From positions 96,001-160,000 of the forward strand of contig JBBSXO010000003.1 of the NCBI GenBank assembly GCA_038045705.1: DNA of 64,000 bases, given 5' to 3'. How positions within the stretch are numbered: position 1 is the first letter of the stretch; every line of letters begins with the position of its first letter. The position numbers and the translations under genes are program-made. The notes beneath the pieces were generated by a model that searched no databases, was not told the origin of the DNA, and saw nothing but the letters and a program-made list of their open reading frames with translations. Origin of the DNA: Nanobdellota archaeon (GTDB taxonomy: Archaea > Nanobdellota > Nanobdellia > Pacearchaeales > GW2011-AR1). Shown piece by piece: positions 5,606 to 54,914 of this stretch.

Positions 5606-5636
5606 AATAAGTCAAGGAAAAAGAGAGTTTTAAAGT

Positions 5637-6364: not shown

Positions 6365-6448
6365 CTAAATATAATAAGTTATATTCTTTAAAAATGTTAT
6401 CAAAATCAGCAGCCCTGTGTTATCCGATTAATATTTCCTTTCGATAGA

Positions 6449-6781: not shown

Positions 6782-6832
6782 TTAAAAAACATTAAAAGGA
6801 AAAGCTATTAAAACAAATAAATATATTCTTAC

Positions 6833-8047
6833 ATGAAAAAAGTAGCTCGGTTCTTAATAATTATAATTATAGTATCTATTTTTATTGCAATAATTTCTTA
6901 CAAGCAAATAACAATAGAATCTTCTAAAGTTCAATCAAGCCCAGAAAACATTATCTCTGAAGAGTCTAAAGAACAACCTATTGAAGAGAAAATATGGAAT
7001 CAAAGAATCGAGTCTGCGTTAGCAACAGAAAACTGCATAACTCCTGAAAATAGAAAATTTGGAGATTTATATTACAATGGCCAATTAATAGATACACATT
7101 TTCATATTGCAAATATTCCAGACAGCACGCCATCAGAACAAGAGCAAGATTATTCAAATGAAGAAATGCCATTATTAGGGGTAAACACGAAAATAACAGA
7201 CATCATATGCACATTAGAAAAAGAGGGAACTAAAAAAGTTTTTGCATTCTTCCCAGTATATAAAGAAGTCTCAGAACCAATGATTGAATTAGTAAAAAGA
7301 ACAATGAAAGAGTATCCCGATAATTTTGTCCCGTTTATTATGGCTCCCGATCATGACGATTCAGTCGATGGTTTTCCAACAGTAGAATCTCAAATATTAC
7401 AGAACATGCTTAATATAGAACAAGATCTTTTCAAAGGCTATGGAGAAATAGGTCTATATGCTCGCGGAGATCATGGAGGTCCTAAAGGATCACCAGAGCT
7501 TCCTCCAGACAGTCAAAGACTTCAAGAAATTTACCCAATAATTAGAGAGAATAATTTAATAATATATTTTCACCTAGGAGAAAATCAAGAAGATAGTTTT
7601 AAAAAAGTATTAGAACAAAATCCAGATATTAACTTTATTTGGCATGGAGATCAGTTAATCCCTTATGAAGATGGAAAACAAAATCTAAAATTAATTGATG
7701 AAATACTAACGAATTATCCAAATGCGTATTATGGTGTAGATGAATTATATGGAGATACTTGGATCCTAAAACCAGAAACAAAAAAAGAAGATTTTATCAA
7801 GCATTTTGATGATTATGAAATTCTTCTAAATGAAGATATTTCTACTTGGAAAGCATTTATAGAAAAACACCCCAACCAAGTCCTATGGGGAACAGATAGA
7901 GGCTGGAGTGCTCCATGGTCTGTTGATGAAGATGTTGGAATAATATTAACTAACTATGCAAGAGCATTCATAGCACGTTTAGATCCAGAAGTCCAAGAAA
8001 AATTTGCATATAAAAATGCAGAAAAACTGATTAATGGTAATATTTAA
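6833..8047 (+). CDS. Membrane-anchored amidohydrolase-family (TIM barrel) metalloenzyme
   Basis: N-terminal TM; IDTHFH, GYGEIG, YFH, IWHG, WGTD motifs; C-terminal YKNAEKL. Confidence 0.85.
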   Translation: MKKVARFLIIIIIVSIFIAIISYKQITIESSKVQSSPENIISEESKEQPIEEKIWNQRIESALATENCITPENRKFGDLYYNGQLIDTHFHIANIPDSTPSEQEQDYSNEEMPLLGVNTKITDIICTLEKEGTKKVFAFFPVYKEVSEPMIELVKRTMKEYPDNFVPFIMAPDHDDSVDGFPTVESQILQNMLNIEQDLFKGYGEIGLYARGDHGGPKGSPELPPDSQRLQEIYPIIRENNLIIYFHLGENQEDSFKKVLEQNPDINFIWHGDQLIPYEDGKQNLKLIDEILTNYPNAYYGVDELYGDTWILKPETKKEDFIKHFDDYEILLNEDISTWKAFIEKHPNQVLWGTDRGWSAPWSVDEDVGIILTNYARAFIARLDPEVQEKFAYKNAEKLINGNI

Positions 8048-29763: not shown

Positions 29764-31158
29764 TTACTTCTTTCCAGCTTTATTAATTAAATGAGGTTGC
29801 CAATGAGCAAAACTCTTAAGCCATACAACTGTGGAGTTAATAGTCTTGCCAGGCTTTGTCGTATCGAGATGAAAAGCCTCAAATTTAGTCCTATAGCCTT
29901 CAGTCAATTTAGGCAAAAAGAACAATGCAGTAATTATCATAAGTATTGAAGAAATTATAAAAGTGAAAAACATAGAACTAATAAAATCAACAGAAATATA
30001 TTGAACTATAATTCCACCAATAAAACTACCAAATAAAGTTCCCAAACCAATAAGCAAAGCACTATATGCAAAACAAAAACCTCTTTTTTGAGGTGAAGAA
30101 GCATTATAAGAAAAAGAAGTAGTACCTATTACAAATCCAGCATTAGCAAGTCCAGATACAATTCCAGGTATTAATATCAGAGCAATAGGGTTCTCAAAAA
30201 ACATCCAAAGCAATGGGACAATAGGAAATAGAAAAGCTCCAAAATAAATCAATTTTAAATTACCATATTTATCAGAGAATTTTCCGGCAATAGGAGCAAA
30301 AAACAAATAAAATACAGTAGAACTTATCGAAACAATAGTATAAGTAAGGTAATTAAAATTCAAGTCCTCTAGCATTCTAACTGCAAAAAAAGGAGCAGAC
30401 ATCATCATCGCAAAATAAAAAAATGCCTGAAAAACTGCAAATTTTCCATAATTATCATATCTCTTTAAAAAAGAGATAAAAGAAAAATAAGATTGCTTTT
30501 TAACTCTAAAATAAGGATTGAATATCTTATTAGTATAATGAACCGAAGCAATTCTAAAAATCATAGCGAATGCAAATAGAAAAGCAAATCCAAGCAAAAC
30601 ATATCCTTTAGTTTTAAACAAATCAAGTAAAAATCCAGAAATAACTAATGTTACTAAACCAACAATTCCAATCAATCTATTCCTAGAAGCAAAAAACTTT
30701 CCTTTTTTTTCTTCAGGAACTAAATCACCAAGCCAAGAAAGCCATGAGACATAACCAGCTCCATAAATAAATGGAATAAGAATTCCCCATAAAGCAATCA
30801 TTATCCAAGGTAAAACTAATGTAAGAGTTCCTTTCCACGCAAAATAAATTAAAGCTAAAACAGGAATTTGCAAGAATACTATCCATAATTTAGCATGCAT
30901 CCAAAGTTTTTTACGAGAATGATTTTCCATAAGCTTGCTTCCCACAATTTCGCCATAAGGATCAAATAATCCATTAAGTGAAGTCATAAGTCCAATATGA
31001 AAACTATTTCCACCAGTAGCTAGAATAAGAGGTGTAAGAAAACCGCTAGACATATTCACACCAATAGATTGTGTATATCCTTCTTTTAGGCTAGCACGTA
31101 AAGCGTGTTCTTTAGAGTGTTTCAAATAGTCAGATTCATCTATAATCTCCTCACCCAT
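29764..31158 (-). CDS. MFS transporter
   Basis: ~12 TM; GKFSDKYG motif A. Confidence 0.9.
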   Translation of the reverse strand: MGEEIIDESDYLKHSKEHALRASLKEGYTQSIGVNMSSGFLTPLILATGGNSFHIGLMTSLNGLFDPYGEIVGSKLMENHSRKKLWMHAKLWIVFLQIPVLALIYFAWKGTLTLVLPWIMIALWGILIPFIYGAGYVSWLSWLGDLVPEEKKGKFFASRNRLIGIVGLVTLVISGFLLDLFKTKGYVLLGFAFLFAFAMIFRIASVHYTNKIFNPYFRVKKQSYFSFISFLKRYDNYGKFAVFQAFFYFAMMMSAPFFAVRMLEDLNFNYLTYTIVSISSTVFYLFFAPIAGKFSDKYGNLKLIYFGAFLFPIVPLLWMFFENPIALILIPGIVSGLANAGFVIGTTSFSYNASSPQKRGFCFAYSALLIGLGTLFGSFIGGIIVQYISVDFISSMFFTFIISSILMIITALFFLPKLTEGYRTKFEAFHLDTTKPGKTINSTVVWLKSFAHWQPHLINKAGKK

Positions 31159-31199
31159 AATATACCTTAGCAAAAAACATTAATAAACATTGTTAGTTC

Positions 31200-31760
31200 T
31201 TAACAAAATTCCGGACACTTTTCTCTAGCTCTTATTTTAAGGCGCTCCATTGTTCTATGCAATATATTCTTTACATTAGACAGAGAACATCTATACATTT
31301 GCGCTATTTTATTCCTATCAACACCATCAACTAAATGAAGACTAGTAATTTGTAAATGTTCTTCATTTACTGAAAAACCATTAAATATTACCTCGACAAG
31401 ATCCCTATTATCTACATCTGAAAAATGATCTACTGAATCAGGAGGATGTTCAAAAAGATCATCCAATCCAAAATGATCTGGCCTATTAAAGTATCGACCT
31501 TTAGTTTTTTTAAGCAACCTCCAACCAGTTTGCCTTAGAGAAAGAGGTATTAAATTAGGATAAACGGGAATTTTTCTTTCAATTTGACCATATAAATTCA
31601 AGAAAGCTTCCTGTATGACATCTTCTGCAGTGTTGTAGTCTACACCTCTCCGAGCCAAGTAACCTATGAACCTTGCACGAGATTCATCAAAATGATCAGT
31701 CAATTCCTGAAGAGTTAAACTCTTCCCAGAATGTTCTTTCAAAGCAGAACAACCATTCAT
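31200..31760 (-). CDS. ECF-type sigma-70 family protein
   Basis: Region 2 AEDVIQEAFL; region 4.2 HTH IAQMYRCSLSNVKNILHRTMERLK; ~186 aa. Confidence 0.8.
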   Translation of the reverse strand: MNGCSALKEHSGKSLTLQELTDHFDESRARFIGYLARRGVDYNTAEDVIQEAFLNLYGQIERKIPVYPNLIPLSLRQTGWRLLKKTKGRYFNRPDHFGLDDLFEHPPDSVDHFSDVDNRDLVEVIFNGFSVNEEHLQITSLHLVDGVDRNKIAQMYRCSLSNVKNILHRTMERLKIRAREKCPEFC

Positions 31761-31859
31761 AGTAGGTAAAAATGACAAATGTATAAAAACATATGTGTTC
31801 AAATGAAAAATAGAAATTGCTTCCATCAACATATAATAAAACTAATTTCTATTGATTTA

Positions 31860-32318
31860 CTAACCGAGTACATCTTGATATTTAGGTTCAGCAGAGACAA
31901 CTCGAATTTCGTTTTCTAAAACTCTTTTAGCATACTCTTTTTCTTCCCCAACAGGAACTTTTACTGTTGCGATTTTAACAAATTCTACCCAATCACTTAC
32001 AGTTCTGCAAGCTCCAGCTGGTGCTGGTTGCGTTTCAGGCCCTACATTATCAGTACAAAGTTGCCTCTCTTCTATTTCTAATCTATATTTGTCAAGGATT
32101 ACTTCTGCTTGTTCCTTAGTACTATCTTCTGTAAATGAAAAAACAATATACCCTTGCTGAATATTAGGATTATCAAAGGTTTCTAACATTGTATTAATAG
32201 TTCCAGATCTTTCGCTTGATTCATCTTCTTGAGTAGAATAATTAATTGATAAAAGCGTAATTAATGCAACCAATGCAATTACTAAAATCCCTAAACCTAT
32301 TTTTAGAAGTTTACTCAT
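31860..32318 (-). CDS. Membrane-anchored secreted protein (I9/S8 propeptide-like fold possible)
   Basis: N-terminal TM; YIVFSF...VKVPVGEE...VVSAEP. Confidence 0.65.
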   Translation of the reverse strand: MSKLLKIGLGILVIALVALITLLSINYSTQEDESSERSGTINTMLETFDNPNIQQGYIVFSFTEDSTKEQAEVILDKYRLEIEERQLCTDNVGPETQPAPAGACRTVSDWVEFVKIATVKVPVGEEKEYAKRVLENEIRVVSAEPKYQDVLG

Positions 32319-32591
32319 TTTATTATTAATTTTGATTTATTTATATATTCATCTAATATTAAAAATCTAAGATAAACTATAGATATAGTTTGGTGCGCAT
32401 GAAATTAGTCAAAATTTATTTCTTCTTCAGTTTTTGGGATATTCTCTTCATGTTCTCTTACAATTTTATAGAGTGCAACTATCTCCTTATCTGTAAAAAT
32501 CATATTAGTGATAGATTCGTTTAATATAAAATTCTTTTGGTTTTACATTTTACTAGAAATTTTGTACTTAATTTTTTCATATTCTATCTCA

Positions 32592-32657
32592 CTATAATCC
32601 ACTTTTTAACCAAATGTCAATTATCTTTTCTCTTGTTTCAACTTCGCTTAAACCCAC
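32592..32657 (-). pseudogene. Possible remnant of a type I restriction HsdR N-terminus
   Basis: VGLSEVETREKIIDIWLKSG resembles the LSEAETRxxxIDxxLxxAGW start of HsdR; truncated after ~21 codons. Confidence 0.35.
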
Positions 32658-32757
32658 ATCTTAAAGAAGCTTAGAAACTATTTAAAACTAGTCCCAGAGA
32701 GCATAATTCGCGAGTCGCACTGAGAAGGCTACAAGAGCATTTTCCAGGGAGACTAAT

Positions 32758-33234
32758 TTATTCAGGAACTACTATCTTGTCTACAAAGAATTCTGCTGGA
32801 CCGTAGATTAAGTGTCCTGCTTTCTTGCAAGCGTCAGCATACTTTCTCCACTCAAACGGTCCTTTTCCATCTACCGCATCTTTTGCAGATCTATTTACAT
32901 CAACTGCTAAGTCATCTATACTTTTAACGACTTCAAATCTTAGTCCTCTTTTAACTAAATCTCCAAGTTTATCTTCAAATTCAGCTTTTGTTATTGTTTG
33001 TAAGTCAATCCCATGATCTCCCAAATAAGATCTTATAATTAAACCAAAAAGAGGTGTTTTACTTTTGACATATTGTGGCTCTAAAGTCATTTTTCTTATC
33101 CAATCTTCTGTTTCCCTTATTACCAAAGGGTTACCTTTAAACATCATATAAGTACTATGAATGTAATTAGCTAACGGAAACCAATCATTCCATCTATGTT
33201 TGCTTTCTCCAAATTCATATTCGCTGTCTAACAT
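32758..33234 (-). CDS. Hypothetical protein
   Basis: 158-aa ORF with upstream TATA-like tttaaat. Confidence 0.7.
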   Translation of the reverse strand: MLDSEYEFGESKHRWNDWFPLANYIHSTYMMFKGNPLVIRETEDWIRKMTLEPQYVKSKTPLFGLIIRSYLGDHGIDLQTITKAEFEDKLGDLVKRGLRFEVVKSIDDLAVDVNRSAKDAVDGKGPFEWRKYADACKKAGHLIYGPAEFFVDKIVVPE

Positions 33235-33365
33235 AGTTCTCCCACAAAATAAGGCTATTTAAATTTAACTAATAAGTAGTTACATGTGCTTCCTCAAGAC
33301 ATTTGTCACCCCCTATCAAAATGATGAGTAACCAATTTATTCATAGGCTGTAAAAACAATTATTA

Positions 33366-34436
33366 TTACCTTTTTGCTTCAGCCAATAATTCATCCATTA
33401 ATCCATCACAAAGTTGAGTATAATAGTACTGATCAAAATGAACAACTGAATCATGAGAATGTATAACATCCCAAAATTTCTCTTTAATACTTATTAAAAA
33501 GTCTCTAAGATCTTTAGCATTTGTAAAGAACATCATAAGTGATAAATCCCATGTACCTATTTGTTCTATTAAAGAGTAAAAGCGTTCATCATTGTAGAGA
33601 TATGTCAAAAAGTCTTCTTTTCTTTTATGAGATATATTTCTAAATTTTATCATTACGGTAGTGTATTGGTAATCAAGTAGATGGTAATTTAGACGAAGAA
33701 TAAATTCTTTAATAATTCCAGCTTTAATTAGGTTTTTTATCCTATAGTTTACTGCATCTCTGGAAAGATTTAATTTTTTTCCTAGATCTGTAAGGGAGAT
33801 GCGTGAATCTTCGTGTAGGTTTTTTAGTAGGATAATATCCTTTTCATCCAATTCAACTTCTTTCTTTTGTTTTGCATTAAATTCAGAGGTATAAGGGAAA
33901 TTTAATTTAGATCCATATTCACTTTTCTTTTTCATATTTCTAATATATTTTTGGCTTTTATGTATAAAGTTTTTTACTGTAGCTACCATAAAATCATTAA
34001 GATATTCTTTAATTGGAGAAAGAATGCTCTCTAAGATTGAGTCGTAGTTTTCTTCATATAATGTTTCAAACATCAAAATTATCTCCCATTTCCCACCTGT
34101 TTCTATGACCCAATTAACATATTTGTTTTTTAAAAAGTCCTCGATAATTAGTTTCATTTTATCTTGAGATAAAGAATGAAATTGGAGGTATAGAACATAT
34201 CTATGTGCTCCTAAAAGTTTTGGATCTATAACTGTGAAAACATCAGTTATTATCTTATTTTTCCTAAGATTATTATATCTATAATTGATTACCTCTGTAC
34301 TGGTTCTTAATAAGTCAGCTATTTGAGATAAAGGAGTTCTACTATTAACTGTTAAGATATTAACAATTTCCCTATCTTTATTAGTTAACTCTATTTTTTT
34401 ATGTTCTTCAGCAATTATTTCGCCAGTTTTCCTCAT
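33366..34436 (-). CDS. Tandem Lrp/AsnC family transcriptional regulator
   Basis: Two HTH+RAM units (NSRTPLSQIA...; DSRISLTDLGKKL...). Confidence 0.92.
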   Translation of the reverse strand: MRKTGEIIAEEHKKIELTNKDREIVNILTVNSRTPLSQIADLLRTSTEVINYRYNNLRKNKIITDVFTVIDPKLLGAHRYVLYLQFHSLSQDKMKLIIEDFLKNKYVNWVIETGGKWEIILMFETLYEENYDSILESILSPIKEYLNDFMVATVKNFIHKSQKYIRNMKKKSEYGSKLNFPYTSEFNAKQKKEVELDEKDIILLKNLHEDSRISLTDLGKKLNLSRDAVNYRIKNLIKAGIIKEFILRLNYHLLDYQYTTVMIKFRNISHKRKEDFLTYLYNDERFYSLIEQIGTWDLSLMMFFTNAKDLRDFLISIKEKFWDVIHSHDSVVHFDQYYYTQLCDGLMDELLAEAKR

Positions 34437-34529
34437 ATATTATATAGTGCTAAATTAGCTTATATATTTTACGCATATTTCAAGAAAGTCTATAACTAAT
34501 TTTAAATATAGCTAATTATCTCTAAATTT

Positions 34530-36083
34530 ATGAGTAAAGGTAATTTTGACCAAGCATTAGAGTCAGCAAGGCAAGAGTTAGCAACTTTTGATCTAAATGC
34601 AGTTCATGCTTTAGGGTTATCGAAAGTTCATACAGATTTACTTGGGAGTCATACAGTTGTCACTTACCCTCCCTTAGACTCTTTATCCAAAGACATTGAT
34701 TCAGACAGATTACTTCAAAAAGTTAAATTTGGACAAACAGTTAACGGCTATGCTCACGTTCCATGGTGTGAGTATCCATGCAAGTTTTGTCCGTATACCA
34801 CATTAGGAATTAAAGGACAGGGTATAGAAAGAATGCCTGAGTATTTCCAAGCATTACAAAAAGAAGTTAAAATGTGGGCAGAAAAAATGAAAAGAGATTC
34901 ATCTCAAATGGAATCTTTATATATTGGTGGAGGAACACCATTTGCAATTCCTACAAGTAAACTTGAATGGTTAGTTTCTATGCTTAGAACAGAAATTCCA
35001 TTTACAAGTAATCCTGCAATATCAGTTGAAACAACACCATTTGCAGCATTGCAACCAGATGCAAGAGATAAGTTTGGAATATTAAGAGCAAATGGCGTTA
35101 ACAGAATGAGTATGGGTGTCCAATCTTTTGATTTTCCAACTCTAAAAGATACTGCTAGAACATTTCAAGGGCATAAAGATGGAGACGAAGAAAAAGCAGT
35201 AAGAGTTCTTCTAGACTCGGAAATACCTCATATTAATATAGATATGATTCAAGATTTGCCAGAACAAGCTGGTTCTCCACTCGATCGTCTTCGTAATGAT
35301 TTGGAAACAGTAGTAAGATTACAACCACATCATATTACATGGTACAATATGCGTCTGAGACCTGAAACAACTTATGCCAGAAGAGGCACTTCATTTAAAT
35401 CTCCCGAAGAAGAAAGCTTACTCCACCGTCTAACAATTTGGAACTTTATGGAAGTAGCTGGATATCAGGTATTAGAAGGAGATAGATTCGCTAAAGGAAA
35501 AGAATACGAAGATAAATTTAGGAAAGCAAGAGGATCAGTAACGAAAGATCTTCTAGGAATGGGTGTATCTGCTTATTCGCATGTTAATGAAGTATTCTTC
35601 CAAAATCCAAGAGTAACTGGCAATAATGTTAGGTCAGATTCTAAATTAGCTACAGAACAATATGTTGAACGTCTAAGAAATGGAAATCATGCAATTACAT
35701 TTGGTTTTCCAATAGATGCTTCTGAAAGGCTAGCAGCACTTTTTGCTCTAGGATTAAAGGCAGGAGTGGATCTTGAAGAAATTGAAAACGTAGCATTTGG
35801 TCAACCTGATTGTGGAGCATATATAAGACACGTAATTAATCCAAGCGCAGATAGGTATGTTCCAGCAGGATTGTTAGAAGTAAAAGATGGAAGAATAAGA
35901 TTTACAAGATTAGGAAGGTTATTTGAGAATGAGATTTGTGCTTCATTTTATTCTCCAACAGTTGTTGCTGAAGCGAAAGCAAGAAGAGGAGAATTAGCTC
36001 CAGAACTAATGAGATTATATCAAAACTATGAAGGAACCAAGGCAATAGATAGAATGGTTATGGAACAAAAACCAACTTTATAG
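34530..36083 (+). CDS. HemN/HemW-like radical SAM enzyme
   Basis: YPP, YAHVPWCEYPCKFCPY, YIGGGTP, RMSMGVQSFD, GMGVSAYS. Confidence 0.9.
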   Translation: MSKGNFDQALESARQELATFDLNAVHALGLSKVHTDLLGSHTVVTYPPLDSLSKDIDSDRLLQKVKFGQTVNGYAHVPWCEYPCKFCPYTTLGIKGQGIERMPEYFQALQKEVKMWAEKMKRDSSQMESLYIGGGTPFAIPTSKLEWLVSMLRTEIPFTSNPAISVETTPFAALQPDARDKFGILRANGVNRMSMGVQSFDFPTLKDTARTFQGHKDGDEEKAVRVLLDSEIPHINIDMIQDLPEQAGSPLDRLRNDLETVVRLQPHHITWYNMRLRPETTYARRGTSFKSPEEESLLHRLTIWNFMEVAGYQVLEGDRFAKGKEYEDKFRKARGSVTKDLLGMGVSAYSHVNEVFFQNPRVTGNNVRSDSKLATEQYVERLRNGNHAITFGFPIDASERLAALFALGLKAGVDLEEIENVAFGQPDCGAYIRHVINPSADRYVPAGLLEVKDGRIRFTRLGRLFENEICASFYSPTVVAEAKARRGELAPELMRLYQNYEGTKAIDRMVMEQKPTL

Positions 36084-36133
36084 TAATTTTATTAAAATAA
36101 TCAGTTACGCATGAAAGGATACGAAGAGGGGTA

Positions 36134-36205
36134 TGCGCCGGTCGGGAATCGAACCCGACTCTTCGACTTGGGAAGCCGAAATCTTAACCGATGGACCACC
36201 GGCGC
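36134..36205 (-). tRNA. tRNA-Gly(CCC)
   Basis: Reverse complement gcgccgg...tcggc-ttCCCaa-gtcga...gggttcgattccc...ccggcgca. Confidence 0.95.
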
Positions 36206-36255
36206 CTAAAGTTAGCAATGACAAGTCTTTTAAAAAGCTAATTACAAATTACAAT

Positions 36256-37068
36256 ATGAAAAAGAGCACAAAGAAAAATTGGAAAAGGTTCTTCAAATAT
36301 CTTTGGCTTGTAATCTGGAACATAATAAAAATCCCTTATTACATAGTAAAATTAATTTCAAAAACTCAAGATAAATTAGAACAAAAAGAAATTAAACAGA
36401 TAGTAGAAAAAAAGAGGGATTCAGTAAAAGCCATTTACCAAGATTTCAAAATATTAAATACACAGAACGGAAATTACAAAGAATATGAAAAATATATCTC
36501 GAGTGATAAAAGCAAGATAGGAATAATTCTAGGTGCTAGAGGCACAGGTAAAACAGCAATTGGAATTAAAATATTAGAAAACATTTACGCAAAGAGCAAA
36601 AGAAAGTTATATGCTATAGGTTTCAAAAAAGAAGACATGCCTTCATGGATTGAAGTAATAGAAAGCATAGAAGAAATAAATAATAATTCAACAGTCCTAA
36701 TTGATGAAGGAGGAGTTTTATTCAGTTCAAGAAATGCAATGACTAAACCCAACAAACTTCTTAGCCAGTTAATTCTCATTGCAAGGCATAAAAATCTTAA
36801 CATCTTATTTATTTCTCAAAACTCATCAAACTTAGATGTAAACATACTAAGACAAGCAGACCATTTGATACTAAAGCCAACTTCCTTACTACAGGAAGAC
36901 TTTGAAAGAAAAAAAATAAAAGAGATATATGAAGAACAACAAGAAAACTTCAAAAAATATCAAAATATTAAAGGATACACATATATCTATTCAGAAGAGT
37001 TCAGAGGATTCATAGCCAACCCATTACCATCATTTTGGAGTACAAATATCAGCAAGAGCTTCAGATAA
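36256..37068 (+). CDS. Zot/pI-like (FtsK-HerA superfamily) P-loop ATPase with N-terminal hydrophobic helix
   Basis: GARGTGKT, VLIDEG, ARHKNLNILFISQ; start moved to 36256 because the longer ORF overlaps tRNA-Gly. Confidence 0.75.
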   Translation: MKKSTKKNWKRFFKYLWLVIWNIIKIPYYIVKLISKTQDKLEQKEIKQIVEKKRDSVKAIYQDFKILNTQNGNYKEYEKYISSDKSKIGIILGARGTGKTAIGIKILENIYAKSKRKLYAIGFKKEDMPSWIEVIESIEEINNNSTVLIDEGGVLFSSRNAMTKPNKLLSQLILIARHKNLNILFISQNSSNLDVNILRQADHLILKPTSLLQEDFERKKIKEIYEEQQENFKKYQNIKGYTYIYSEEFRGFIANPLPSFWSTNISKSFR

Positions 37069-37099: not shown

Positions 37100-38542
37100 A
37101 TGACAAAAGAAACATTCTATATTACAACCCCTATATACTATCCAAATGATATTCCACATTTGGGTCATGCATACACAACTATAGCAGCAGATGTAATGGC
37201 CAGATGGAATAAACTTCTTGGAAAAAATGTATTCTTTCTAACAGGTACAGATGAACACGGTAAAAAATTAGCAGACACAGCTACAAAAAATAAACAGAAA
37301 CCAAAAGAATTTATAGATAAATTAATACCAGAATTCAAAAAAGATTGGAAAAGCCTAAACATAGAATATGATAGATTCATAAGAACAACAGACAAAGATC
37401 ATGAGGATACAGTTCAGAAAATATTGCAAAAACTAGATGACAACGGAGATATTTACTTAGGAGAATATGAAGGGTTTTACTGTACTTCTTGTGAAGCCTA
37501 TTACACTGAAAAAGACGCCCCTAATCTAAATTGCCCTATACACGAAAAACAATTAGATAAATTAAAAGAACCGTCCTATTTCTTTAAATTATCAAAATAT
37601 GAAAAATTTTTGTTAGACCATTATAAAAAAAATCCAAATTTCATCCTGCCACAAAAAAGAGCAAATGAAGTAATAAACAGAGTAAAAGAAGGTCTAAAGG
37701 ATCTAAGTATATCAAGAACTTCTTTTGATTGGGGGATTCCTTTACCATTCAATAAAAAACACGTCACTTTCGTTTGGGTAGACGCCCTATTCAATTATTA
37801 CTCTGCAACTCAAAGTGAAAAAAAATTAAACAAATTCTGGCCAGCAGATCTTCACTTAATTGGAAAGGATATTTTATGGTTTCACACAGTTTATTGGCCA
37901 GCACTTCTAAAAGCAGTAGATTTACCCTTGCCAAAGACAGTATTTGCTCATGGATGGTGGACAGTTAATAGTAAAAAGATGGGCAAGTCTACAGGTAATG
38001 CAGTAAAAATAAATGAGCTAATTAGTATTGTAGGTGTAGATTCTGCTAGATATTTCTTACTTCGTGAAACTCCTCTAGGAGATGACGGAGATTTTTCTGA
38101 AAGCATGCTAATCGAACGTCACAACAACGAACTAGCAAACAAACTAGGTAATCTAGTAAGCAGAGTCTCAGCTCTAGCTGAAAAATATGGAATTGAAAAA
38201 ACAAAAAATAGTTTAGAAATAAAAGAAACTCTAAAACAAATAGAAGAACATTTCAATAATTACGAATTGCATAAAGTCCTAGAGAGTATTTTCACATATA
38301 TAGATAAAACAAATGAATACATACAAGAAAAGAAACCATGGGAAACAAAAGATAAAAAAGTATTATATGAGCTAGTTTTAGCAATAAAAAATATTGCAAT
38401 TCTAGTCAGTCCATTCATGCCAGACACAGCAGAGAAGATAGCTAAAACATTTAATTTCAAAATCTCTTTAGATGAGTTAGATAAAACTCTAAAGGAAAGC
38501 AAGATAGTTAAATCAGAAATTTTATTCCAAAAAATAACATGA
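37100..38542 (+). CDS. metG: Methionine--tRNA ligase (bacterial MetRS1-like, no fused C-terminal OB domain)
   Basis: YITTPIYYPND.PHLGH, TGTDEHG, CTSC..CPIH, KMGKS. Confidence 0.96.
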   Translation: MTKETFYITTPIYYPNDIPHLGHAYTTIAADVMARWNKLLGKNVFFLTGTDEHGKKLADTATKNKQKPKEFIDKLIPEFKKDWKSLNIEYDRFIRTTDKDHEDTVQKILQKLDDNGDIYLGEYEGFYCTSCEAYYTEKDAPNLNCPIHEKQLDKLKEPSYFFKLSKYEKFLLDHYKKNPNFILPQKRANEVINRVKEGLKDLSISRTSFDWGIPLPFNKKHVTFVWVDALFNYYSATQSEKKLNKFWPADLHLIGKDILWFHTVYWPALLKAVDLPLPKTVFAHGWWTVNSKKMGKSTGNAVKINELISIVGVDSARYFLLRETPLGDDGDFSESMLIERHNNELANKLGNLVSRVSALAEKYGIEKTKNSLEIKETLKQIEEHFNNYELHKVLESIFTYIDKTNEYIQEKKPWETKDKKVLYELVLAIKNIAILVSPFMPDTAEKIAKTFNFKISLDELDKTLKESKIVKSEILFQKIT

Positions 38543-38877
38543 CTGATAAAATACCCTTCACAGACTTTGAGAAAGTAGACTTGCGAGTTGGAACAATACT
38601 CGAAGTTGAGAATCATCCTAAAGCAGATAAACTTTATGTCTTAAAAGTAGATTTAGGAGAAGATAGTCCAAGAACAATAGTAGCAGGTCTAAGACCACAC
38701 TATACTCACGAAAACCTAAAAGGAAAACAAGCCATATTCGTAGTTAATCTTGAACCAGTAAATCTCAGAGGAATAGAAAGCAATGGCATGATTCTAGCAG
38801 CCTCAAACCAAGAAAAAACTAATGTCTTTTTCTTAAAACCAGATAAACAAATAGCACCAGGAAGTAAAATACACTAA
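38539..38877 (+). CDS. Stand-alone tRNA-binding OB protein (MetRS C-terminal/Trbp111/CsaA)
   Basis: DLRVG, HPKADKLY, NLEP..LRGIESNGMIL; ATGA overlap with metG. Confidence 0.92.
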   Translation: MTDKIPFTDFEKVDLRVGTILEVENHPKADKLYVLKVDLGEDSPRTIVAGLRPHYTHENLKGKQAIFVVNLEPVNLRGIESNGMILAASNQEKTNVFFLKPDKQIAPGSKIH

Positions 38878-46810: not shown

Positions 46811-49800
46811 TCAATTGTAACCTGTCTTCCTAATTAATCTGTTTCCCATCAAACTCTTAAATCTCCTATGCTTTCTCACAGAATGAACTATTACTATCAT
46901 TACAATAATTATCCCAACAATAAGAGTACTCATTATTATCCAGAATACTAATCTTATTTGAGAATCAATAGGACTATCTTCAGTCAATGTTTCAGTTTCC
47001 TCCAAATCTTCATCGACTAACTGAGTTTCATCAAGCTCAATATTATCATTATCATTAGAACATCCTGTATCAGATGGATAGTCAACTAATCCATCACCAT
47101 CATTATCAACTTCATCATTACATTGAGTAACTAAAGTATTAGTTCTTCTAGGAGGACCACCAGTCCCACTTCCAGAACTACTTCCACTTCCAGATCCAGA
47201 ACTACTAGAACCAGATCCAGTCCCACACGTTCCACAATCAGAAGCACAAGAAGAACAAGTCTCACTTAATACATGACAATAATTATCTCCACAAGTAGAG
47301 TTTAGAGTACTGTAATTACTAAACCCTACAGCAGTCATCACAAATTCACCATTAGAGTAAGATAAAGGAGTACACTTTGTAGAAGGACAAGTAACATTCC
47401 CAGATGAAGTCTGAATTATAGGAACAGGAGCTTGAGTATAACTCAAGTTATAGAAAGTAACTCTAGCAGTTTGATTCAATTCAACATAACTTTCACTATA
47501 TACTCCAACTATATTACTTGCAATAGCAATAGCATTATTCAAGTTCAAAGCCTGATAAACTCCAGAAACAGATCTCCACAATGAAACCTGTTGTCCTAAG
47601 TACTGTATTCTTCCAAGTCCTGGAATTCCAATAGAAAAGTCAACAACTCTAGTCAAATCAGTAATATTAGAAATATTAGTAGTCAGATTATTATTAAATC
47701 TAGAGTAAAGAGGAATAGGACATCCACTATCTCCTACTAAATCACGAGTTCCATCACAATCATTATCCAGTCCATCTCTACACAATTCAACCCCAGTTTC
47801 AACAGTAGCATATCCTGAAATAGAATTGTAATTACATCCAGGCCAGTTATTATTAGTACAAGTCTCAAATGAATTCAGACAAACTCCTCTCTGTTCTCCA
47901 CAGTTTCTAACCTGTCCGTTAGTACAAACAGGTAAACTCAAAACAGTTAAGTTATAATTTACATTTCTAACAACTGTTCCACTTGTTCCAGTAATTATAA
48001 TACTTTGATTAGAAACCAAAGTAGCACTAGAAGAAGCAGATAAAGTAAGAGTTGAAGAGCAAGAATTTCCACTAGAAGGAGTACAACTTGTTGGATTAAA
48101 TAACGCAGAAATTCCAGCAGATAAGTTAGTAGCAGTAAATGTCACAGCAGATGAAGTTCCAGAAGTATGAGTCGCAGTAACTGTAGTAGAAACAGTGTTA
48201 CCTCTTTGTACAGATCCAGATGTAGGACTTCTAGAAATTGTAAAGTCTAATGGAGCACTTTGATTTGTAGTATTACTAGCAAGATTAGACCAACCTGAAA
48301 CACCAACACTATTATTCGCTAAAACTCTATATTCAAATGAAGTACTTGTAGGCAAACCATTATCAGTAAATGTAATTGTATTTGCAGGCAAGTTAGAAGC
48401 AGTAGACAATACATTAAAGCTACCAGAAGGTAATTGTCTTCTCTCAACTCTGAAGTTCATTTCATTATCGCTATTGTCTTTCCAATTAAGTCTCAACTGT
48501 ATAGAACTTACTGGAGTAACGTTTAAGTCAGAAGGGGAGTTAGGCAAACTCCCAGGTACACATCCCTCATCAACCTGACCATCACAGTCATTATCTAATC
48601 CATCACAAGTGCTTTCAATTACTTGATAATTAGAATTATGAGTTACATATGTAGTAGGTGAATAAGTAGGGGCACTGCATCCCCACCAATTCTTAAACTT
48701 ACAAGTCTCTCTTGATCCAGCACAAACTCCTCTCTGTTCTTGACAATTTCTTTGCGTGTTTTCAGTACAGAGATCATTAGGGTTCCATTGCCGACCATAA
48801 TCAGACCTATGAGTAACCCATAATTGGTCAAGCCATCTTCGCCAATCAGGAAATTGGGTAACACCTTCAATTTGCATATAACGATCCATATATGGGAAAT
48901 AAACATCATGATTCCAAAGATCAGTAATGCCCATAATATGAGCGGCTAAAGCATAACCAACCCATGAACTAGCAGTACAACAAATACGATAACCATTTCC
49001 AGTCCAAATAACATTATCACCTCTAGGATCGTCCCAATGATTCCAACCCCAATCAGGAAGTCCTATATCAGCAGAAGTATACCCTCCATAACCACAATTC
49101 ACACCTCCTGCAGAACATTCAGGAATAACAGAAGGAGGTGTATTTACAGGATAATTAGTTACAGCAAAAGTCTGTCCAGTATCTCCAAAATAGCCTGGAT
49201 CAGTATTATCAAAACGAATCCTAGACATACCTTGATCATTAAGCAAAGCTCCCGCAAAAAGAATTGGGAACAACCGACCGGAGCCATGGCCCCCATTAGG
49301 AAACCAAGAATCATTAACATTAACACGATTGTTAAAAGCACCATAGAAATCAATACCTAATTGAGTAAGCATAACAACTAATCTTTCTTTTTCCGCATTA
49401 GTATAATTAAGATTAACTAAAATAGCTATATAAGAAACATCTAAAGCAAAAGCTCCACCATATCCAGAGGCACCTAAAGAAGGTTGAACCCCTTCAGTTC
49501 TCCAATAATTAGTCTGAACATTAACACGTTCAAATGTTTTTTCTATCTGTGATATGTTTAAAGGAGAAGGTGGAGCGCTAGAGGGAGTTAATCTTCCCAG
49601 ACGATTATAATCTAATTGATTTTTATTAAAACGAATAGTTTTATCTGTTCCAAAATAAGTCGGTCTAAAACTATTTGCTGGAGGTACTTGAGTAAGAATA
49701 GTTAATACTGCAGCATCTCTAACAAAACCTCTTGTACATGAGAATGTAATGCTGTTAACTGCATCCCAGCCATATGTAGCTCCGCAAGTAGAAGGAGTAG

Positions 49801-50686
49801 TCTGACTTTCTGTAGATAAAAGAGATGCAGAAGCAGTAATAGTTAAAGGGAAAGTTGGCCGTAATGTAGCATCATAAGAAGGCCCATCATTATTACTAAG
49901 ACGATCATCATAAGGTTGACCGCTTAGACCACTACGAAAACTTGGATTCAACCATGAACCATGCCTTCCAGGTATTTGTAAAGGAGAAGTACTAGTAATT
50001 GTTACAGGACCAATAACCCACCAATCTCCATTAGCAAATTGCCCGCATTCAACAGGTGTTTGAAAATTCCAAGTAATTCCATAACGAGTAATTGAAGAAC
50101 ACAAAGCACTTTCAGGTCCAGACCCACCAGAAGGAGATAAAGAAGAATCATCGCCATAAAAAAGATAAATTTTTTCAGAAACCAAATTCTTAGAATAACT
50201 AGGAGAAGAGCTAAGACTAACAATAGAATAAATTTCAAGTCTAGAATCTTCTGAAGATTCATCCGCCAAAATTAAAACTCCATCGGTAATTTTCCAGTCA
50301 AATGAAGCAACACCATTTTCAAAAACGCTTTGAAGATTAATTATATGGTCATCAAACAGGATATCTTTTTCAAAAATCTCAAAATCAACTTTATAACCAT
50401 CACAATTTTTTCCAAAAACTTCAAAGTGAACAACATCTCCAATTTTAACAGAATTAACACTCGATGAAACTCTTTCAATTATACACGAAGAACCAATATC
50501 TACATTAGGAAAAGTTCTAAGATCTGAAATATTAAGAAGAGAATCTTCTTCAGAAATAACTTTGCCTGTAATTGTCCCATCAATATCAAAAAAACTATAA
50601 GTCTTATTTACGTCAAAAAATAAAACAAAAGAAAAAAAAGCAATAAAAAAAACAAATATAATAAAAAAATCAACACTCCACTTCAT
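46811..50686 (-). CDS. Large modular surface protein (uncharacterised catalytic-like domain, FN3, Ig-like, Cys/Asp-rich repeats, C-terminal TM)
   Basis: N-terminal TM with ITGKVI; FN3 WKDNSDNE; CDGLDNDCDG repeats; Ser/Gly linker; C-terminal TM. Confidence 0.85.
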   Translation of the reverse strand: MKWSVDFFIIFVFFIAFFSFVLFFDVNKTYSFFDIDGTITGKVISEEDSLLNISDLRTFPNVDIGSSCIIERVSSSVNSVKIGDVVHFEVFGKNCDGYKVDFEIFEKDILFDDHIINLQSVFENGVASFDWKITDGVLILADESSEDSRLEIYSIVSLSSSPSYSKNLVSEKIYLFYGDDSSLSPSGGSGPESALCSSITRYGITWNFQTPVECGQFANGDWWVIGPVTITSTSPLQIPGRHGSWLNPSFRSGLSGQPYDDRLSNNDGPSYDATLRPTFPLTITASASLLSTESQTTPSTCGATYGWDAVNSITFSCTRGFVRDAAVLTILTQVPPANSFRPTYFGTDKTIRFNKNQLDYNRLGRLTPSSAPPSPLNISQIEKTFERVNVQTNYWRTEGVQPSLGASGYGGAFALDVSYIAILVNLNYTNAEKERLVVMLTQLGIDFYGAFNNRVNVNDSWFPNGGHGSGRLFPILFAGALLNDQGMSRIRFDNTDPGYFGDTGQTFAVTNYPVNTPPSVIPECSAGGVNCGYGGYTSADIGLPDWGWNHWDDPRGDNVIWTGNGYRICCTASSWVGYALAAHIMGITDLWNHDVYFPYMDRYMQIEGVTQFPDWRRWLDQLWVTHRSDYGRQWNPNDLCTENTQRNCQEQRGVCAGSRETCKFKNWWGCSAPTYSPTTYVTHNSNYQVIESTCDGLDNDCDGQVDEGCVPGSLPNSPSDLNVTPVSSIQLRLNWKDNSDNEMNFRVERRQLPSGSFNVLSTASNLPANTITFTDNGLPTSTSFEYRVLANNSVGVSGWSNLASNTTNQSAPLDFTISRSPTSGSVQRGNTVSTTVTATHTSGTSSAVTFTATNLSAGISALFNPTSCTPSSGNSCSSTLTLSASSSATLVSNQSIIITGTSGTVVRNVNYNLTVLSLPVCTNGQVRNCGEQRGVCLNSFETCTNNNWPGCNYNSISGYATVETGVELCRDGLDNDCDGTRDLVGDSGCPIPLYSRFNNNLTTNISNITDLTRVVDFSIGIPGLGRIQYLGQQVSLWRSVSGVYQALNLNNAIAIASNIVGVYSESYVELNQTARVTFYNLSYTQAPVPIIQTSSGNVTCPSTKCTPLSYSNGEFVMTAVGFSNYSTLNSTCGDNYCHVLSETCSSCASDCGTCGTGSGSSSSGSGSGSSSGSGTGGPPRRTNTLVTQCNDEVDNDGDGLVDYPSDTGCSNDNDNIELDETQLVDEDLEETETLTEDSPIDSQIRLVFWIIMSTLIVGIIIVMIVIVHSVRKHRRFKSLMGNRLIRKTGYN
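47140..47176 (+). repeat. 37-bp exact repeat shared by the two tandem surface-protein genes, copy 1
   Basis: tagttcttctaggaggaccaccagtcccacttccaga; identical to 51083-51119. Confidence 0.9.
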
Positions 50687-50744
50687 AAAGAAAAAAGAAT
50701 AAGGCTATTTATAAGGTTTATTATAGCTCTATCTCGACTACAAA

Positions 50745-53700
50745 TCAAATCCCTAGAGGAGGCGAATTACTTGAACTTGAAGCAACTTTTGCAAGATTAT
50801 TAAATCTATTTTTTCCAATCAAATATCTAAGGATGATCATAGAAGCAATAACAATTCCACCAATAAGCGCAACAATAACTATCCAAAAGATAATCTTTAT
50901 CTCAAAGACTCTTTCAAGAGGAGTAGGTAAGCTTTGGTCTTCACCTTCTGATTCATCAATCAAAGAGTCTACATTCAATTCAACATTATCTTGGGCATTG
51001 CTACAACCAGCATCTCTAGGATAATCAACTAGTCCATCACCATCATTGTCAACTCTATCATTACATTGAGTAACTAAAGGAGTAGTTCTTCTAGGAGGAC
51101 CACCAGTCCCACTTCCAGATCCAGAACCTGAGCCAGATCCACTTCCACTAGAAGAAGGGCATGCCCCACAATCAGAACTACAAGAAGAACAAGTCTCACT
51201 CAGGCTGCAGTAAGTGTCTCCACAACTAGAGTTTCTAGTACTATAATTACTAAATCCAGCAACATTCATACTAAATACACCATTAAGATAAGCCAAACTT
51301 TGACATGATGTAGAAGGACAAATAACATATCCAGTAGAACTTGAAACAACAGGAGTAGGTGCTTCCGAATAAGACAAACCTTCAAATGTTAAAACAGCAG
51401 TTTGATCAAGTTCAGGATTACTTAGAGCATCAACACCAATCAAATTATTTTCTATAGTTACAGCATCATCCAAATTCAAGGCCTGATGAATTCCAGAAGC
51501 ATTTCTCAAAACAGAAACTCTCTGTCCTAAGTATTGTATTCTTCCAGCTCCAGAAACTGCTAGAGACATATCTTGAACATTGCTTAAATCAGGAACAGCA
51601 AAGAAATTAGTAGTCAATGGAGAAATAAATCCAGTAACAGAAGGAACAGGACACCCATTCAAAGTACTAACAACTGTAGATATAGACGTATTAAGACATA
51701 AATCTAAATTATTTGGAACTGGTCCATCTGGAATACTGTCTCCATCATTATCAAAACTACAGATATTATTATAACACAATCCAGTAGTATATGTAGAACC
51801 AGCAATAACGCAATCAGAGCCAGAGCTTAATAGACAAGACTCTCCAAAATCACACAACAAACCAGCAGGTGTGCAAATAGGGCCACCGCCATCTCTACAG
51901 GTTTCATGAGAATCCTGAATACCATTACTACATTCAGCAAGAGTTCCTGTCTCTCCTTGCAAAGTCAATGTAACCCGACGGACAACGTTAGTAGTTTGAG
52001 ATGTTGCAGTAATAACTATGGGATAATTTTGTTCAACAACATTTCCAACATCTACATCAAGAGTTACATTACAAGTAGGATTAGGGTTTCCAGCACTAGG
52101 AGTACATCTATCTGATCCAACAAAACTAACAGAAGCTTCAGGAATAGATTGAGCAGACACAACAACTTCTTCTTGAGTCATTTCAACAAGACTCTCTAAT
52201 TTAACTTCGACATTAAATGAAGATCCAGAAACAACAGGAACTGTAGAAGGATTCAAAGTAGATAGATAACTAAATGGATAATTCACTCTAAGATTTTGCG
52301 GAGAAGAAGAAACAATACCATCTCCACTTATAACTCTTATTGCAAAATCACCTACTAATGTCCCTAATATTCCAGGAGGTAAAGACAATTGTATTAAGTT
52401 AGAATTAGCAACAGTTGTTAAAGGAGTTATATCTATTCCATTTGCAGTAACAAAAGCCAAAGGATCAAAATCATTTCCAACTAGATTAATAATATTATTA
52501 ACATTGTTAACAATAATATTAGGAGAAATAGAATTTATCACAGGACTAGATCTCAAAGTAAAAGTGAAAGAGTTAGAATTCAGTCCAGGAGCAGGAGTCG
52601 GATTTACAACACTAATGGAGTGAGTTCCAACTCTAAATGTTTCAGCCTCAATATTAAAAGAGATACTATTTCCAGTAATAACTAAGTTCTGACATTGCGT
52701 AGAACAAGGAACTCCATCAATTCTTAATTCAGCATTAGACGCAAAATATTGCCCATTAATAGTTAAAGCATTATCAGATCCCCACAAAAATATAGGGCTA
52801 GGAAGATTATTTATGTTATTTATAACTGGGCTCTGATCAACACAACCGCAAGAATTAGCATTACAACTTTGTGATTGAGAACAACCACTACTAGAATCAC
52901 ATGTAGCACCACACTGATTGATCCTACATTGATAAGAACCAGCACAAGTACCTGCATCTACACATCTATCTGGACTACCACTAGATTTAGTTCCACTAGT
53001 ACCAGCACATTCAACACACCATTGACAAAGATTACCAGGTGCAGTATTACAAGATGTACTTGTACTGTATCCAGAACAAGAACCAGCAGTTATTTGCACG
53101 TTAGAAGTCAAAGCATTTCCGCTTCTATAAGATATAGAAGAATCAATATCACATCTTGCAATTTGAGTTATTCCAGGAGTAGAAGAACTTAAACAATTAA
53201 AAGTAGCTGTACTTCCACTAGAACTAGATAAAGCACAAGTAGAGGAACCAATAAATCCATCTAATGCAACGGCAACATTTGCAGGATTTGAAGTACAAAC
53301 TAAATTAAAATTAGTATTTGCATTAACACTAGAAGGCGCATTTATGTTTGTAATCTGAATAGAACATCCACTATCTCCTTTAATTAAACCATCTCCACTT
53401 CCAATATAATCTCTTCCACCAGTAGCAATATTGAGTTCATCACAGTCATTATCCATACCATCAGAACACAAAGCAGAACCAGTTTCAACAGAAGCATAAT
53501 TGGGACTATGAGATGAATATGTCCCAGAAGTGCAAGCCTCAAACTCTCCATCAACACATCTAGCAACAGAACCTTGACAAACACCCTGTTGATTGCTACA
53601 AGGAATAGTATCAACACCATCAAGACAAGTAGTAGCTTCTATAGTCAAAGGTAACCAATTAGCAGAATACTGCAAGAAAGGATTGCCAGTAGGATCAAAT

Positions 53701-54800: not shown

Positions 54801-54914
54801 TACAATAGATATAACTAAGTCATTTATAAAGTTTATTCTAAAAATTACTAGATTATTAATAACTATATCTTTAATGGTAACAAACAATATAAAGCAAAAT
54901 CCATCTGCAACACA

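Follow-up and report, generated by a model that had tools for sequence, protein, structure and literature searches.

A divergent ECF-type sigma-70-family gene in the chromosome of a Nanobdellota archaeon: a candidate for a repurposed transcription regulator

The main finding of this work is the presence of a very divergent sigma-70-family gene, of the extracytoplasmic function (ECF) type, in a 64,000-nucleotide stretch of the genome of a Nanobdellota archaeon (assembly GCA_038045705.1, contig JBBSXO010000003.1; hereafter the window, corresponding to C3:96001-160000 of a genome of 844,273 bp in 10 contigs, estimated to be 91.5% complete and 0.45% contaminated). The gene occupies positions 31200-31760 of the window on the minus strand, ends with a TAA stop codon at 31202-31200 and encodes a protein of 186 amino acids (aa). 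It is under purifying selection and evolves fast, as measured against its orthologs, which fall into three known lineages: the cluster of the window gene itself, P0002 (85% identical, from a contig of 514 kb) and P0003 (73%, encoded at locus L013 of an independent assembly). We propose, with about half of our confidence, that its product is a repurposed gene-specific transcription regulator that acts inside the archaeon. In the standard view the archaeal RNA polymerase works with the factors TBP, TFB and TFE (review PMC7289017). The occurrence of sigma-70 genes in archaea is already in print: genes of family fam00359 were described in DPANN lineages, where they are especially prevalent in Woesearchaeota (Castelle et al., 2021, Front Microbiol, PMC8204110), and the window gene adds another member to this phenomenon.

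To judge from profile and structure comparisons, the window protein is an ECF-type homolog of the sigma-70 family, and a very divergent one. The NCBIfam model TIGR02937 (sigma70-ECF) matches it with an E-value of 4.8e-8 and 32.8 bits (cut-off 42.9), model positions 14-163 (of 165) being covered by residues 55-200 of the 210-aa form of the reading frame discussed below. A preliminary description of this DNA had reported an intact open reading frame (ORF) of about 186 aa with the region 2 motif AEDVIQEAFL and a region 4 helix-turn-helix (HTH) at ECF spacing, and this is borne out by the frame itself, by the alignment with E. coli SigE, by an AlphaFold2 (AF2) model and by Foldseek. A comparison with Pfam found both families, each below its threshold: Sigma70_r2 with an E-value of 5.2e-4 (20.2 bits, cut-off 24) and Sigma70_r4 with 6.8e-5 (22.7 bits, cut-off 24.1); the Pfam scan gave no match to Sigma70_r3 or r1. 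In a phmmer search against the PDB, E. coli SigE (1or7) was the sole match, a weak one that covers the DV.QEAF motif of region 2 and the C-terminal HTH. Among 1.84 billion representative proteins scanned with HMMER, 16 matched at E<=1e-3, P0003 being the only close relative among them; most of the remote relatives checked with Pfam are ordinary ECF factors with strong r2 and r4_2 domains, the exceptions being P0004, an HTH-repeat protein, and P0007, in which no sigma domain was matched. By fold, the model has 11 Foldseek matches in the PDB at E<=1e-3, all of them ECF sigma factors (SigH, SigL, SigE, AlgU) with a Foldseek probability of 1.00. The whole-chain template modelling (TM) scores of these matches are merely 0.31-0.35, because the arrangement of the two domains differs, and at rank 44 stands the complex of SigE region 4 with -35 DNA (2h27), with a target-normalized TM of 0.73. 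Taken together, the TIGR02937 E-value and the 11 ECF matches lead us to call the homology clear in spite of the sub-threshold scores.

The AF2 model, built from a 16-row alignment (mean predicted local distance difference test score, pLDDT, 68.5), shows the two-domain architecture of the ECF family, with three helices in a sigma-2-like and four in a sigma-4-like domain, joined by a short linker (approximately residues 89-117) in a chain of 186 aa that lacks regions 1.1 and 3. The sigma-2-like domain comprises residues 17-91 (31488-31712; this and the following features are on the minus strand), as indicated by the model, Sigma70_r2 and the alignment with SigE 1or7, its helices being predicted at residues 17-36, 42-60 and 70-91. 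Within it, the region 2.2 motif AEDVIQEAFL (residues 45-54; 31599-31628) aligns with the region 2 stretch of SigE, and D47, V48, Q50, E51, A52, F53 and L54 are invariant across the three orthologs. The sigma-4-like domain with its HTH (residues 113-181; 31218-31424; AF2 model, Sigma70_r4 and Foldseek) is modelled with helices at 113-126, 133-143, 149-155 and 160-181. Between the two lies an acidic, His- and aromatic-rich linker (residues 92-112; 31425-31487) with pLDDT below 50 at residues 89-117. Although predicted to be disordered, this linker shows the strongest constraint in the whole protein, with 21/21 residues identical in P0002 and 15/21 in P0003. The ortholog alignment also shows a conserved C-terminal C-P-x-F-C (residues 182-186; 31203-31217), and the protein has four Cys residues in total, C4, C158, C182 and C186, located at its ends and in the HTH and invariant in all three orthologs. 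Some ECF factors are independent of anti-sigma factors and are controlled through their own extensions or Cys-rich tails (CorE-like). The window gene resembles these in lacking an anti-sigma gene and in its conserved Cys, an analogy only, as there are just four Cys and no match in sequence to those factors was sought or seen.

The intact frame runs from 31200 to 31832 (minus strand) and counts 210 aa from its first ATG, but the true start is most likely M25 at 31760, a choice favoured by a TATA box at -29, by the upstream sequence kept in L013 and by the calling of P0002 from the equivalent Met. The promoter block at 31761-31810 (minus strand), recognized in the upstream sequence and by comparison with L013, contains the TATA box TTTTTATA at 31782-31789; read in the direction of the gene (31789-31782), the box begins 29 nt 5' of the ATG at 31760. 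The 50 nt preceding this ATG match L013 at 48 positions, and beyond them no alignment is possible. The 210-aa form was also considered as a lipoprotein-like precursor and rejected, since the TATA position and the L013 conservation make the extra 24 codons better read as promoter. From this arrangement we infer that the transcript is leaderless and begins at or near the ATG.

This promoter is of the kind used throughout the genome. Among 611 long ORFs, 103 TATA-like octamers begin at -32 to -29, against 1-25 in any other 4-nt bin, and a set of 159 promoters shows the consensus A(A/G)nAA, resembling a TFB recognition element (BRE), immediately 5' of the TATA box. The regularity of this placement, 29-32 nt before the ATG, suggests that most mRNAs of the genome are leaderless. 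The sigma-like genes inspected in relatives mostly have a TATA-like box about 24-33 nt before their start (read by eye and uncounted), and no shared ECF-type -35/-10 pair was seen upstream of them. As for sequences that the protein might recognize, in terms of the -35 (AAC) and -10 (CGT/GTC) elements of an autoregulated ECF promoter, a GAAC lies 7 nt 5' of the sigma TATA box and a GTC follows it downstream, but the 20 nt between them are not the canonical spacing; L013 has TAAC instead of GAAC. GAAC stands 7-8 nt 5' of the TATA boxes of both the sigma gene and the adjacent gene of a major facilitator superfamily (MFS) transporter, and at that place in 4 of the 159 promoters, which makes a weak, post hoc lead. 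The two promoters are only weak candidates for targets of the sigma-like protein.

From its composition and context, the gene is native to the archaeal chromosome. The preliminary description placed it on a clearly archaeal contig, and the flanking genes and a GC content of 0.29-0.37 in each 5-kb window of the 214,948-bp contig agree with this; the window encodes, among others, CDC48, L15e, MCM, aRF1, aIF2-beta, aIF1A, NAC, KaiC and an ATPase set of the type IV pilus/archaellum kind. An assembly or binning artefact, in which a bacterial fragment was joined to an archaeal contig, is hardly credible. Foreign or chimeric DNA does appear elsewhere in this assembly, as a block of about 57% GC at the end of one contig of 31% GC (C5, ~70000-85135) and the start of another (C6, 1 to ~13000), in which two sigma-like matches, of 163 aa and 108 aa, lie together with ORFs rich in Arg and Ala. 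The window gene, on the other hand, has a GC content of 31-32% like its surroundings, lies about 127 kb inside its 215-kb contig and is conserved with both flanks in the independent assembly L013, while P0002 comes from a contig of 514 kb. The order tRNA-Gly, sigma gene, MFS gene and, further on, a zinc-ribbon protein is the same in L013, so the junction of the sigma and MFS genes is not an assembly artefact, a chimeric assembly having been raised as a possible objection to the gene.

The genome has the archaeal initiation machinery: TBP, TFE and TFB (locus L008) are all encoded, and the single Rpo1 locus scores 708+269 bits with the archaeal model against 168 bits with bacterial rpoC (cut-off 963.5). 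A bacterial core RNA polymerase β' subunit was not found in the genome, the best rpoC match being this archaeal Rpo1 gene, and since no bacterial β' is encoded, a canonical bacterial sigma role is impossible within the cell. In Rpo1 itself (C2:11070-14513), A' and A'' are fused into one frame of 1147 aa; frame lengths of 1133-1203 aa recur order-wide, and in five other genomes of the class Rpo1 is split into frames of ~870 aa and ~390 aa, so that the fusion may mark this order. A cognate anti-sigma gene next door is typical of ECF factors, though not universal. The absence of an evident anti-sigma neighbour here also stands, as a Pfam scan found no anti-sigma domain among the neighbours of the gene, and the zf-HC2 anti-sigma family has no match at E<=1 in the genome, which is 91.5% complete. 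A 152-aa membrane protein encoded upstream was considered as an anti-sigma candidate and rejected, because it is missing from the ortholog locus L013 and matches no family.

Selection on the gene was estimated by comparison with L013. For the whole gene, the rates of nonsynonymous (dN) and synonymous (dS) substitution are 0.146 and 0.50, with a dN/dS of 0.29 (Fisher p 9e-8; 58.5 nonsynonymous differences in 441.5 sites and 42.5 synonymous differences in 116.5 sites), and the neutral decay envisaged in the preliminary description is not observed. Constraint is uneven along the protein: dN/dS is 0.24 in the sigma-2 half (dN 0.100, dS 0.421, p 4e-5), 0.10 in the linker, which offers few sites (dN 0.152, dS 1.57, p 5e-4), and 0.45 in sigma-4 (dN 0.204, dS 0.456, p 0.025). 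Four flanking genes have a dN/dS of 0.09-0.14 and a dS of 0.88-1.40 in the same comparison, and methionyl-tRNA synthetase (MetRS), 57% identical between the two, has a dN/dS of 0.27. The orthologs differ in a mosaic manner. Relative to P0002, the residues examined from 92 to 186 are all identical, and identity falls to 56-85% in the segments N-terminal to residue 92; relative to P0003, most N-terminal segments keep 82-90% identity and the sigma-4 HTH retains 21/33 residues. Beyond these lineages, a protein query of 60 other genomes of the order retrieved no ortholog and one weak match of 25% identity. To judge from such searches, the gene is a near-orphan and a peripheral member of its family.

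At the locus level, the sigma gene is an accessory gene of narrow distribution in a variable slot adjacent to a tRNA gene. Downstream of it lies the MFS transporter gene (29764-31158, minus strand; Pfam MFS_1 E 4e-28), and on its other side a segment of about 4.2 kb (31860-36083) separates it from tRNA-Gly (36134-36205, minus strand). This segment, which forms part of the slot and is missing from L013, encodes the 152-aa membrane protein, a 158-aa protein, a regulator with a double AsnC-HTH and a radical-SAM/HemN-like protein; in L013 the slot holds the sigma gene alone. The MFS gene was found in 14/16 same-genus genomes. At the 11 MFS loci fetched from other genomes no sigma-like gene was detected, and the slot, bounded by tRNA-Gly and the MFS gene, held an unrelated 173-aa gene in three, a different 211-aa gene in one and nothing in two. 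An operon of the sigma and MFS genes was also considered; the idea is weakened, since the MFS gene has a TATA-like box of its own (TTTATTAA, 31180-31187, 29 nt upstream of its ATG at 31158) and is retained in relatives without the sigma gene. On the far side of the tRNA, the listed 311-aa ORF at 36133-37068 (plus strand) begins inside tRNA-Gly, and the real protein probably starts near 36250; the gene encodes a P-loop ATPase anchored in the membrane, for which the matches to Zot-like and DnaA-like proteins are weak, and it is conserved beside tRNA-Gly in same-genus genomes.

Such a setting raises the possibility that a mobile or viral element brought the gene as cargo, or that the gene is an accessory one acquired by recent transfer, inserted at a tRNA-adjacent hot spot and either regulating genes of the element or having no role in the host. 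The varying content of the slot in close relatives (a sigma-like gene, the 173-aa gene, the 211-aa gene or nothing) speaks for this, as do the mosaic pattern of ortholog identity and a dS of 0.50 in the sigma gene against 0.88-1.40 in its flanking genes; moreover, in a comparison of features the ESM-Atlas clusters closest to the protein are divergent ECF-like sigmas labelled viral, which is a lead only. We nevertheless consider this origin distinctly unlikely. The GC content of the gene is native, no integrase was found in the Pfam scan and no att-like repeats around the slot, and in L013 the gene stands in the slot without companions. Moreover, a tblastn search of 50,697 phage records gave nothing at E<=1e-3, the PHROG match is to the generic sigma family (E 3.9e-6), no stronger than the bacterial models, and the single weak IMG/VR match, an ordinary ECF sigma of a phage, has only the region 2 motif in common with the protein.

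The window gene does not stand alone in its genome. TIGR02937 has eight matches at E<=1, and five full-length, low-GC, ECF-like paralogs are present in the 844 kb, the window gene included; with these and with orthologs in three lineages, the gene is not the singleton that had been feared. The other paralogs are a tandem pair (C2:2128-2637 and C2:2707-3258) located directly after EF-1alpha at the end of a cluster of RNA polymerase and elongation factor genes that runs from rpo2-rpo1 to EF-2/EF-1alpha, one beside threonyl-tRNA synthetase (ThrRS) at C2:41357-41893, and one beside proteasome alpha at C5:25688-26290. Other TIGR02937 matches include the two in the 57%-GC block and L008, which is TFB; the L007 match covers region 4 only. 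In the tandem pair (C2:2128-3258; 183 aa and 169 aa), the sigma-4 HTH looks truncated in alignment, and orthologous arrangements occur in two same-genus genomes. Near the ThrRS-adjacent gene, a family of small proteins (81-102 aa, no Pfam match) is encoded in 5/5 same-genus loci (L001 1155-1400, that is C2:41050-41289, and L018, L019, L020 and L029). It is single-copy in this genome and directly adjoins the sigma-like gene in 3/5 loci, an ORF of 392-404 aa intervening in L019 and L020; from this arrangement it is a candidate partner of the ThrRS-adjacent paralog, not of the window gene.

The same picture extends to the order and the phylum. In the order, 17/41 genomes, this one included, pass the TIGR02937 cut-off, and in 20 loci fetched from such genomes the sigma genes sit among archaeal genes: ThrRS with the archaea-specific editing domain, proteasome alpha, EF-1alpha, PolB, CDC48, aIF2-gamma, aIF5B and TFS. 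As the positions adjacent to ThrRS, proteasome alpha and EF-1alpha recur among relatives, the other paralogs have syntenic orthologs, which have diverged to 15-25% identity within the genus. The same-genus locus L017 has a sigma gene of 357 aa (2198-3271), in which r2 and r4 are recognized, 406 nt upstream of rpo2 (3678-6926) and in the same orientation, with rpo1 following further along the contig. Of 301 genomes sampled from the phylum, each with a completeness of at least 90%, the cut-off is passed by 131, and 136 have a match at E<=1e-8; the sample includes two unpublished genomes, G303 and G304, without which the tallies are 129-130/299 over the cut-off and 134/299 at E<=1e-8, and no other claim made here uses them. 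Twenty phylum loci were chosen as high-scoring matches on long contigs, not at random; all 20 have Sigma70_r2, 14 have region 3 and 13 have region 1.2, and their flanks include L34e/SecY, L15e, exosome subunits, aIF2-alpha, ATP-dependent DNA ligase and FttA. In one of them, from another genus of the class (L087, 4061-9196), four tandem sigma-70-family genes of 287, 297, 371 and 684 aa stand beside deoxyhypusine synthase, the two longest proteins having regions 1.1, 1.2, 2, 3 and 4 (68-91 bits for each of regions 2, 3 and 4, and only 26-29 for region 1.1). No bacterial rpoC was found in any of the five phylum genomes with full sigma proteins that were tested (5/5; best 242-295 bits against the cut-off of 963.5), and the rpoC matches there fall on split frames of archaeal A'/A'' size. 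Among control archaea (Methanocaldococcus, Haloferax, Sulfolobus and Methanosarcina), TIGR02937 never passes its cut-off, and Sigma70_r2 has one sub-threshold match, in Haloferax. The five low-GC paralogs, their conserved synteny, the linkage to rpo2 in L017 and the prevalence of 131/301 together point to a function inside the archaeon.

This bears directly on the two roles that had been offered for the protein, repurposing within the archaeon or action as an effector on the RNA polymerase of a bacterial partner. Repurposing fits a gene that is under selection and has orthologs and paralogs. An effector sent to a bacterial host or partner would hijack the bacterial core RNA polymerase as phage sigmas do, a role with which the ECF fold, the retained core-binding motif and the lack of a bacterial core in this genome would agree, as would the view that DPANN archaea are symbionts (PMC8204110) and the viral labels of the nearest ESM-Atlas look-alikes, again a lead only. 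We regard it as very improbable, since the 186-aa form, judged from its sequence with no predictor, shows neither a hydrophobic stretch at its N terminus nor another secretion signal, the 24 codons added in the longer ORF are better accounted for by the promoter, no secretion genes are adjacent in the Pfam scan, and the paralogs are syntenic with housekeeping genes and have ordinary archaeal promoters. The bacterial-type metG and mnmA and the surface passengers, which had been thought to fit close contact with bacteria, were located (metG at 37100-38542, mnmA from 63584 onward and the fn3 proteins), and none of them is relevant to the sigma gene. The passengers are probably the products of two neighbouring giant ORFs (1291 and 1396 aa; 46811-54935, minus strand) whose only matches are to fn3. 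At 37100-38877 (plus strand), a 480-aa MetRS is followed by a 112-aa tRNA_bind ORF with a 4-nt overlap, the C-terminal tRNA-binding module thus being a separate gene; it is also separate in L013, where other small genes lie between it and MetRS. At 63082-63179 (plus strand), Rfam reports a 98-nt tRNA (50.5 bits) that ARAGORN does not report and that may be an intron-containing archaeal tRNA.

We hypothesize that the window protein would no longer work as a bacterial sigma factor and that its sigma-4 HTH may bind DNA near promoters served by TBP and TFB, while the region 2.2 surface and the constrained acidic linker may contact a protein partner. The most plausible partner would be a component of the archaeal transcription machinery, and the most attractive one the clamp coiled-coil of Rpo1. 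This element (Rpo1 residues ~216-266) is nearly invariant across the order, and we take it to be the homolog of the bacterial β' clamp helices, the docking site of sigma-2. A complex prediction of the sigma-like protein with the first 330 residues of the Rpo1 of this genome scored 0.00 against a mark of 0.32; it was run without controls and is counted neither way.

Several observations weigh against a regulator of this kind. All the curated cut-offs (Sigma70_r2, Sigma70_r4 and TIGR02937) are missed by the window protein, and its region 2.3/2.4 is degenerate in comparison with both canonical ECF factors and the other paralogs. Only three orthologs are known, and among 400 other genomes of the class just four have weak matches, of 26-39% identity. 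The dN/dS of the gene is 2-3 times that of the four flanking genes. The MFS gene is kept in same-genus genomes in which the slot is empty or holds the unrelated 173-aa gene, so the transporter does not need the sigma-like protein. No recurring, regulon-defining DNA motif was found in the genome; a genome-wide search with the promoter block, its halves and GAAC-N19-21-TTGTC returned the gene's own site and scattered near-matches with 3-4 mismatches. Finally, the recognition helix region of sigma-4 is identical to that of P0003 at only 21/33 residues and the promoter block is almost identical, and this variation of the helix between orthologs while the promoter does not vary argues against simple autoregulation. 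Some of these points would equally describe a relic left by gene transfer from bacteria, which would drift, weakly constrained, with no specific function: the missed cut-offs, the degenerate region 2.3/2.4, the near-orphan distribution and a dN/dS that is the highest among the locus genes compared. Such a relic is improbable in our view, as a dN/dS of 0.29 is well below 1 (p ~1e-7), the frame is intact in all three lineages, the promoter is conserved, and the linker and region 2.2 are strongly conserved.

A bolder possibility than the gene-specific regulator favoured here is that the archaeal RNA polymerase truly uses the protein as an alternative factor for initiation or specificity. With sigma-2 placed on the clamp coiled-coil of Rpo1 and the linker in the cleft, the protein would guide or redirect the enzyme to particular promoters, together with or replacing TBP and TFB. 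The invariance of the region 2.2 D-V-x-Q-E-A-F-L in the orthologs and its alignment with SigE would fit such a role, and so would a linker that is the most constrained segment and a nearly invariant clamp coiled-coil. Genomic linkage points in the same direction, with the sigma gene of L017 directly upstream of rpo2-rpo1 and a tandem sigma-like pair closing the RNA polymerase and elongation factor cluster of the present genome; members of the class, besides, have full sigma proteins (regions 1.1/1.2, 2, 3 and 4, with 60-90 bits per domain) in genomes where archaeal Rpo1 alone was found (5/5 tested). What speaks against it is that the gene is driven by a normal TATA promoter, that no conserved ECF-type -35/-10 pair lies upstream of sigma-like genes, and that region 2.3/2.4, responsible in bacteria for melting and -10 recognition, is degenerate in the window protein. 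To our knowledge, sigma-factor use is not known for any archaeal RNA polymerase, which also counts against this role, and we consider it rather unlikely. The broader proposition that DPANN sigma-70 proteins, the window protein among them, dock on the archaeal clamp coiled-coil and, as a layer added to TBP, TFB and TFE, serve as subunits that confer promoter specificity or modulate initiation is likewise an unlikely one.

Comparison with known systems helps to place the gene. Like the DPANN sigma-70 genes reported by Castelle et al. (PMC8204110), it is a sigma-70-family gene on an archaeal scaffold in a genome with TBP, TFB and TFE, and no anti-sigma factor was found; the one paragraph of that paper on sigma factors excludes mis-binning and calls the mechanism unclear. 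Records of the same genus are labelled Nanoarchaeota, Pacearchaeota or Woesearchaeota, which places the gene in the DPANN lineages of that work, and our prevalence counts in the order and the phylum agree with it. The sigma passage of PMC8204110 contains no promoter architecture, paralog synteny, variable slot or selection estimates. Unlike the long forms common in the class (regions 1.2 to 4), the window gene is a near-orphan ECF-type paralog. A full-text literature search found no study of what archaeal sigma homologs do.

Bacterial ECF (group 4) factors such as SigE (1or7, 6jbq), M. tuberculosis SigH and SigL and P. aeruginosa AlgU share with the window protein the sequence of sigma-2, short linker and sigma-4 in about 186 aa, the D-V-x-Q-E-A-F-L of region 2.2 and the C-terminal HTH, and they are its best PDB matches by both sequence and fold. 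The differences are equally marked. In contrast to these factors, the window protein belongs to a host with no bacterial core RNA polymerase and has no anti-sigma partner that could be found; its gene has an archaeal TATA/BRE promoter instead of an ECF -35/-10 pair, its region 2.3/2.4 is degenerate and its scores fall short of every curated family cut-off, and its linker is the best-conserved segment rather than the most variable one. Archaeal one-component regulators with a sigma-4/LuxR-type HTH are also comparable, being small cytoplasmic proteins with a C-terminal HTH scored by Sigma70_r4/GerE; according to the survey of LuxR-type proteins, which lists sigma region 4 annotations only in the part that concerns us, they act with the archaeal basal machinery (PMC5413776). 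Unlike the window protein, they have no sigma-2 domain.

In textbooks, sigma factors belong to Bacteria and TBP/TFB to Archaea, and here an entire archaeal class keeps selected sigma-70-family genes beside an archaeal RNA polymerase only. If docking on the clamp were true, it would be the first use of a sigma factor outside Bacteria and organelles, and if the archaeal polymerase is contacted, the finding would bear on the cross-domain interchangeability of initiation factors and on the proposed relationship between sigma and TFB. The window protein, small, soluble-looking and easy to express, may serve as a practical test case for binding assays.

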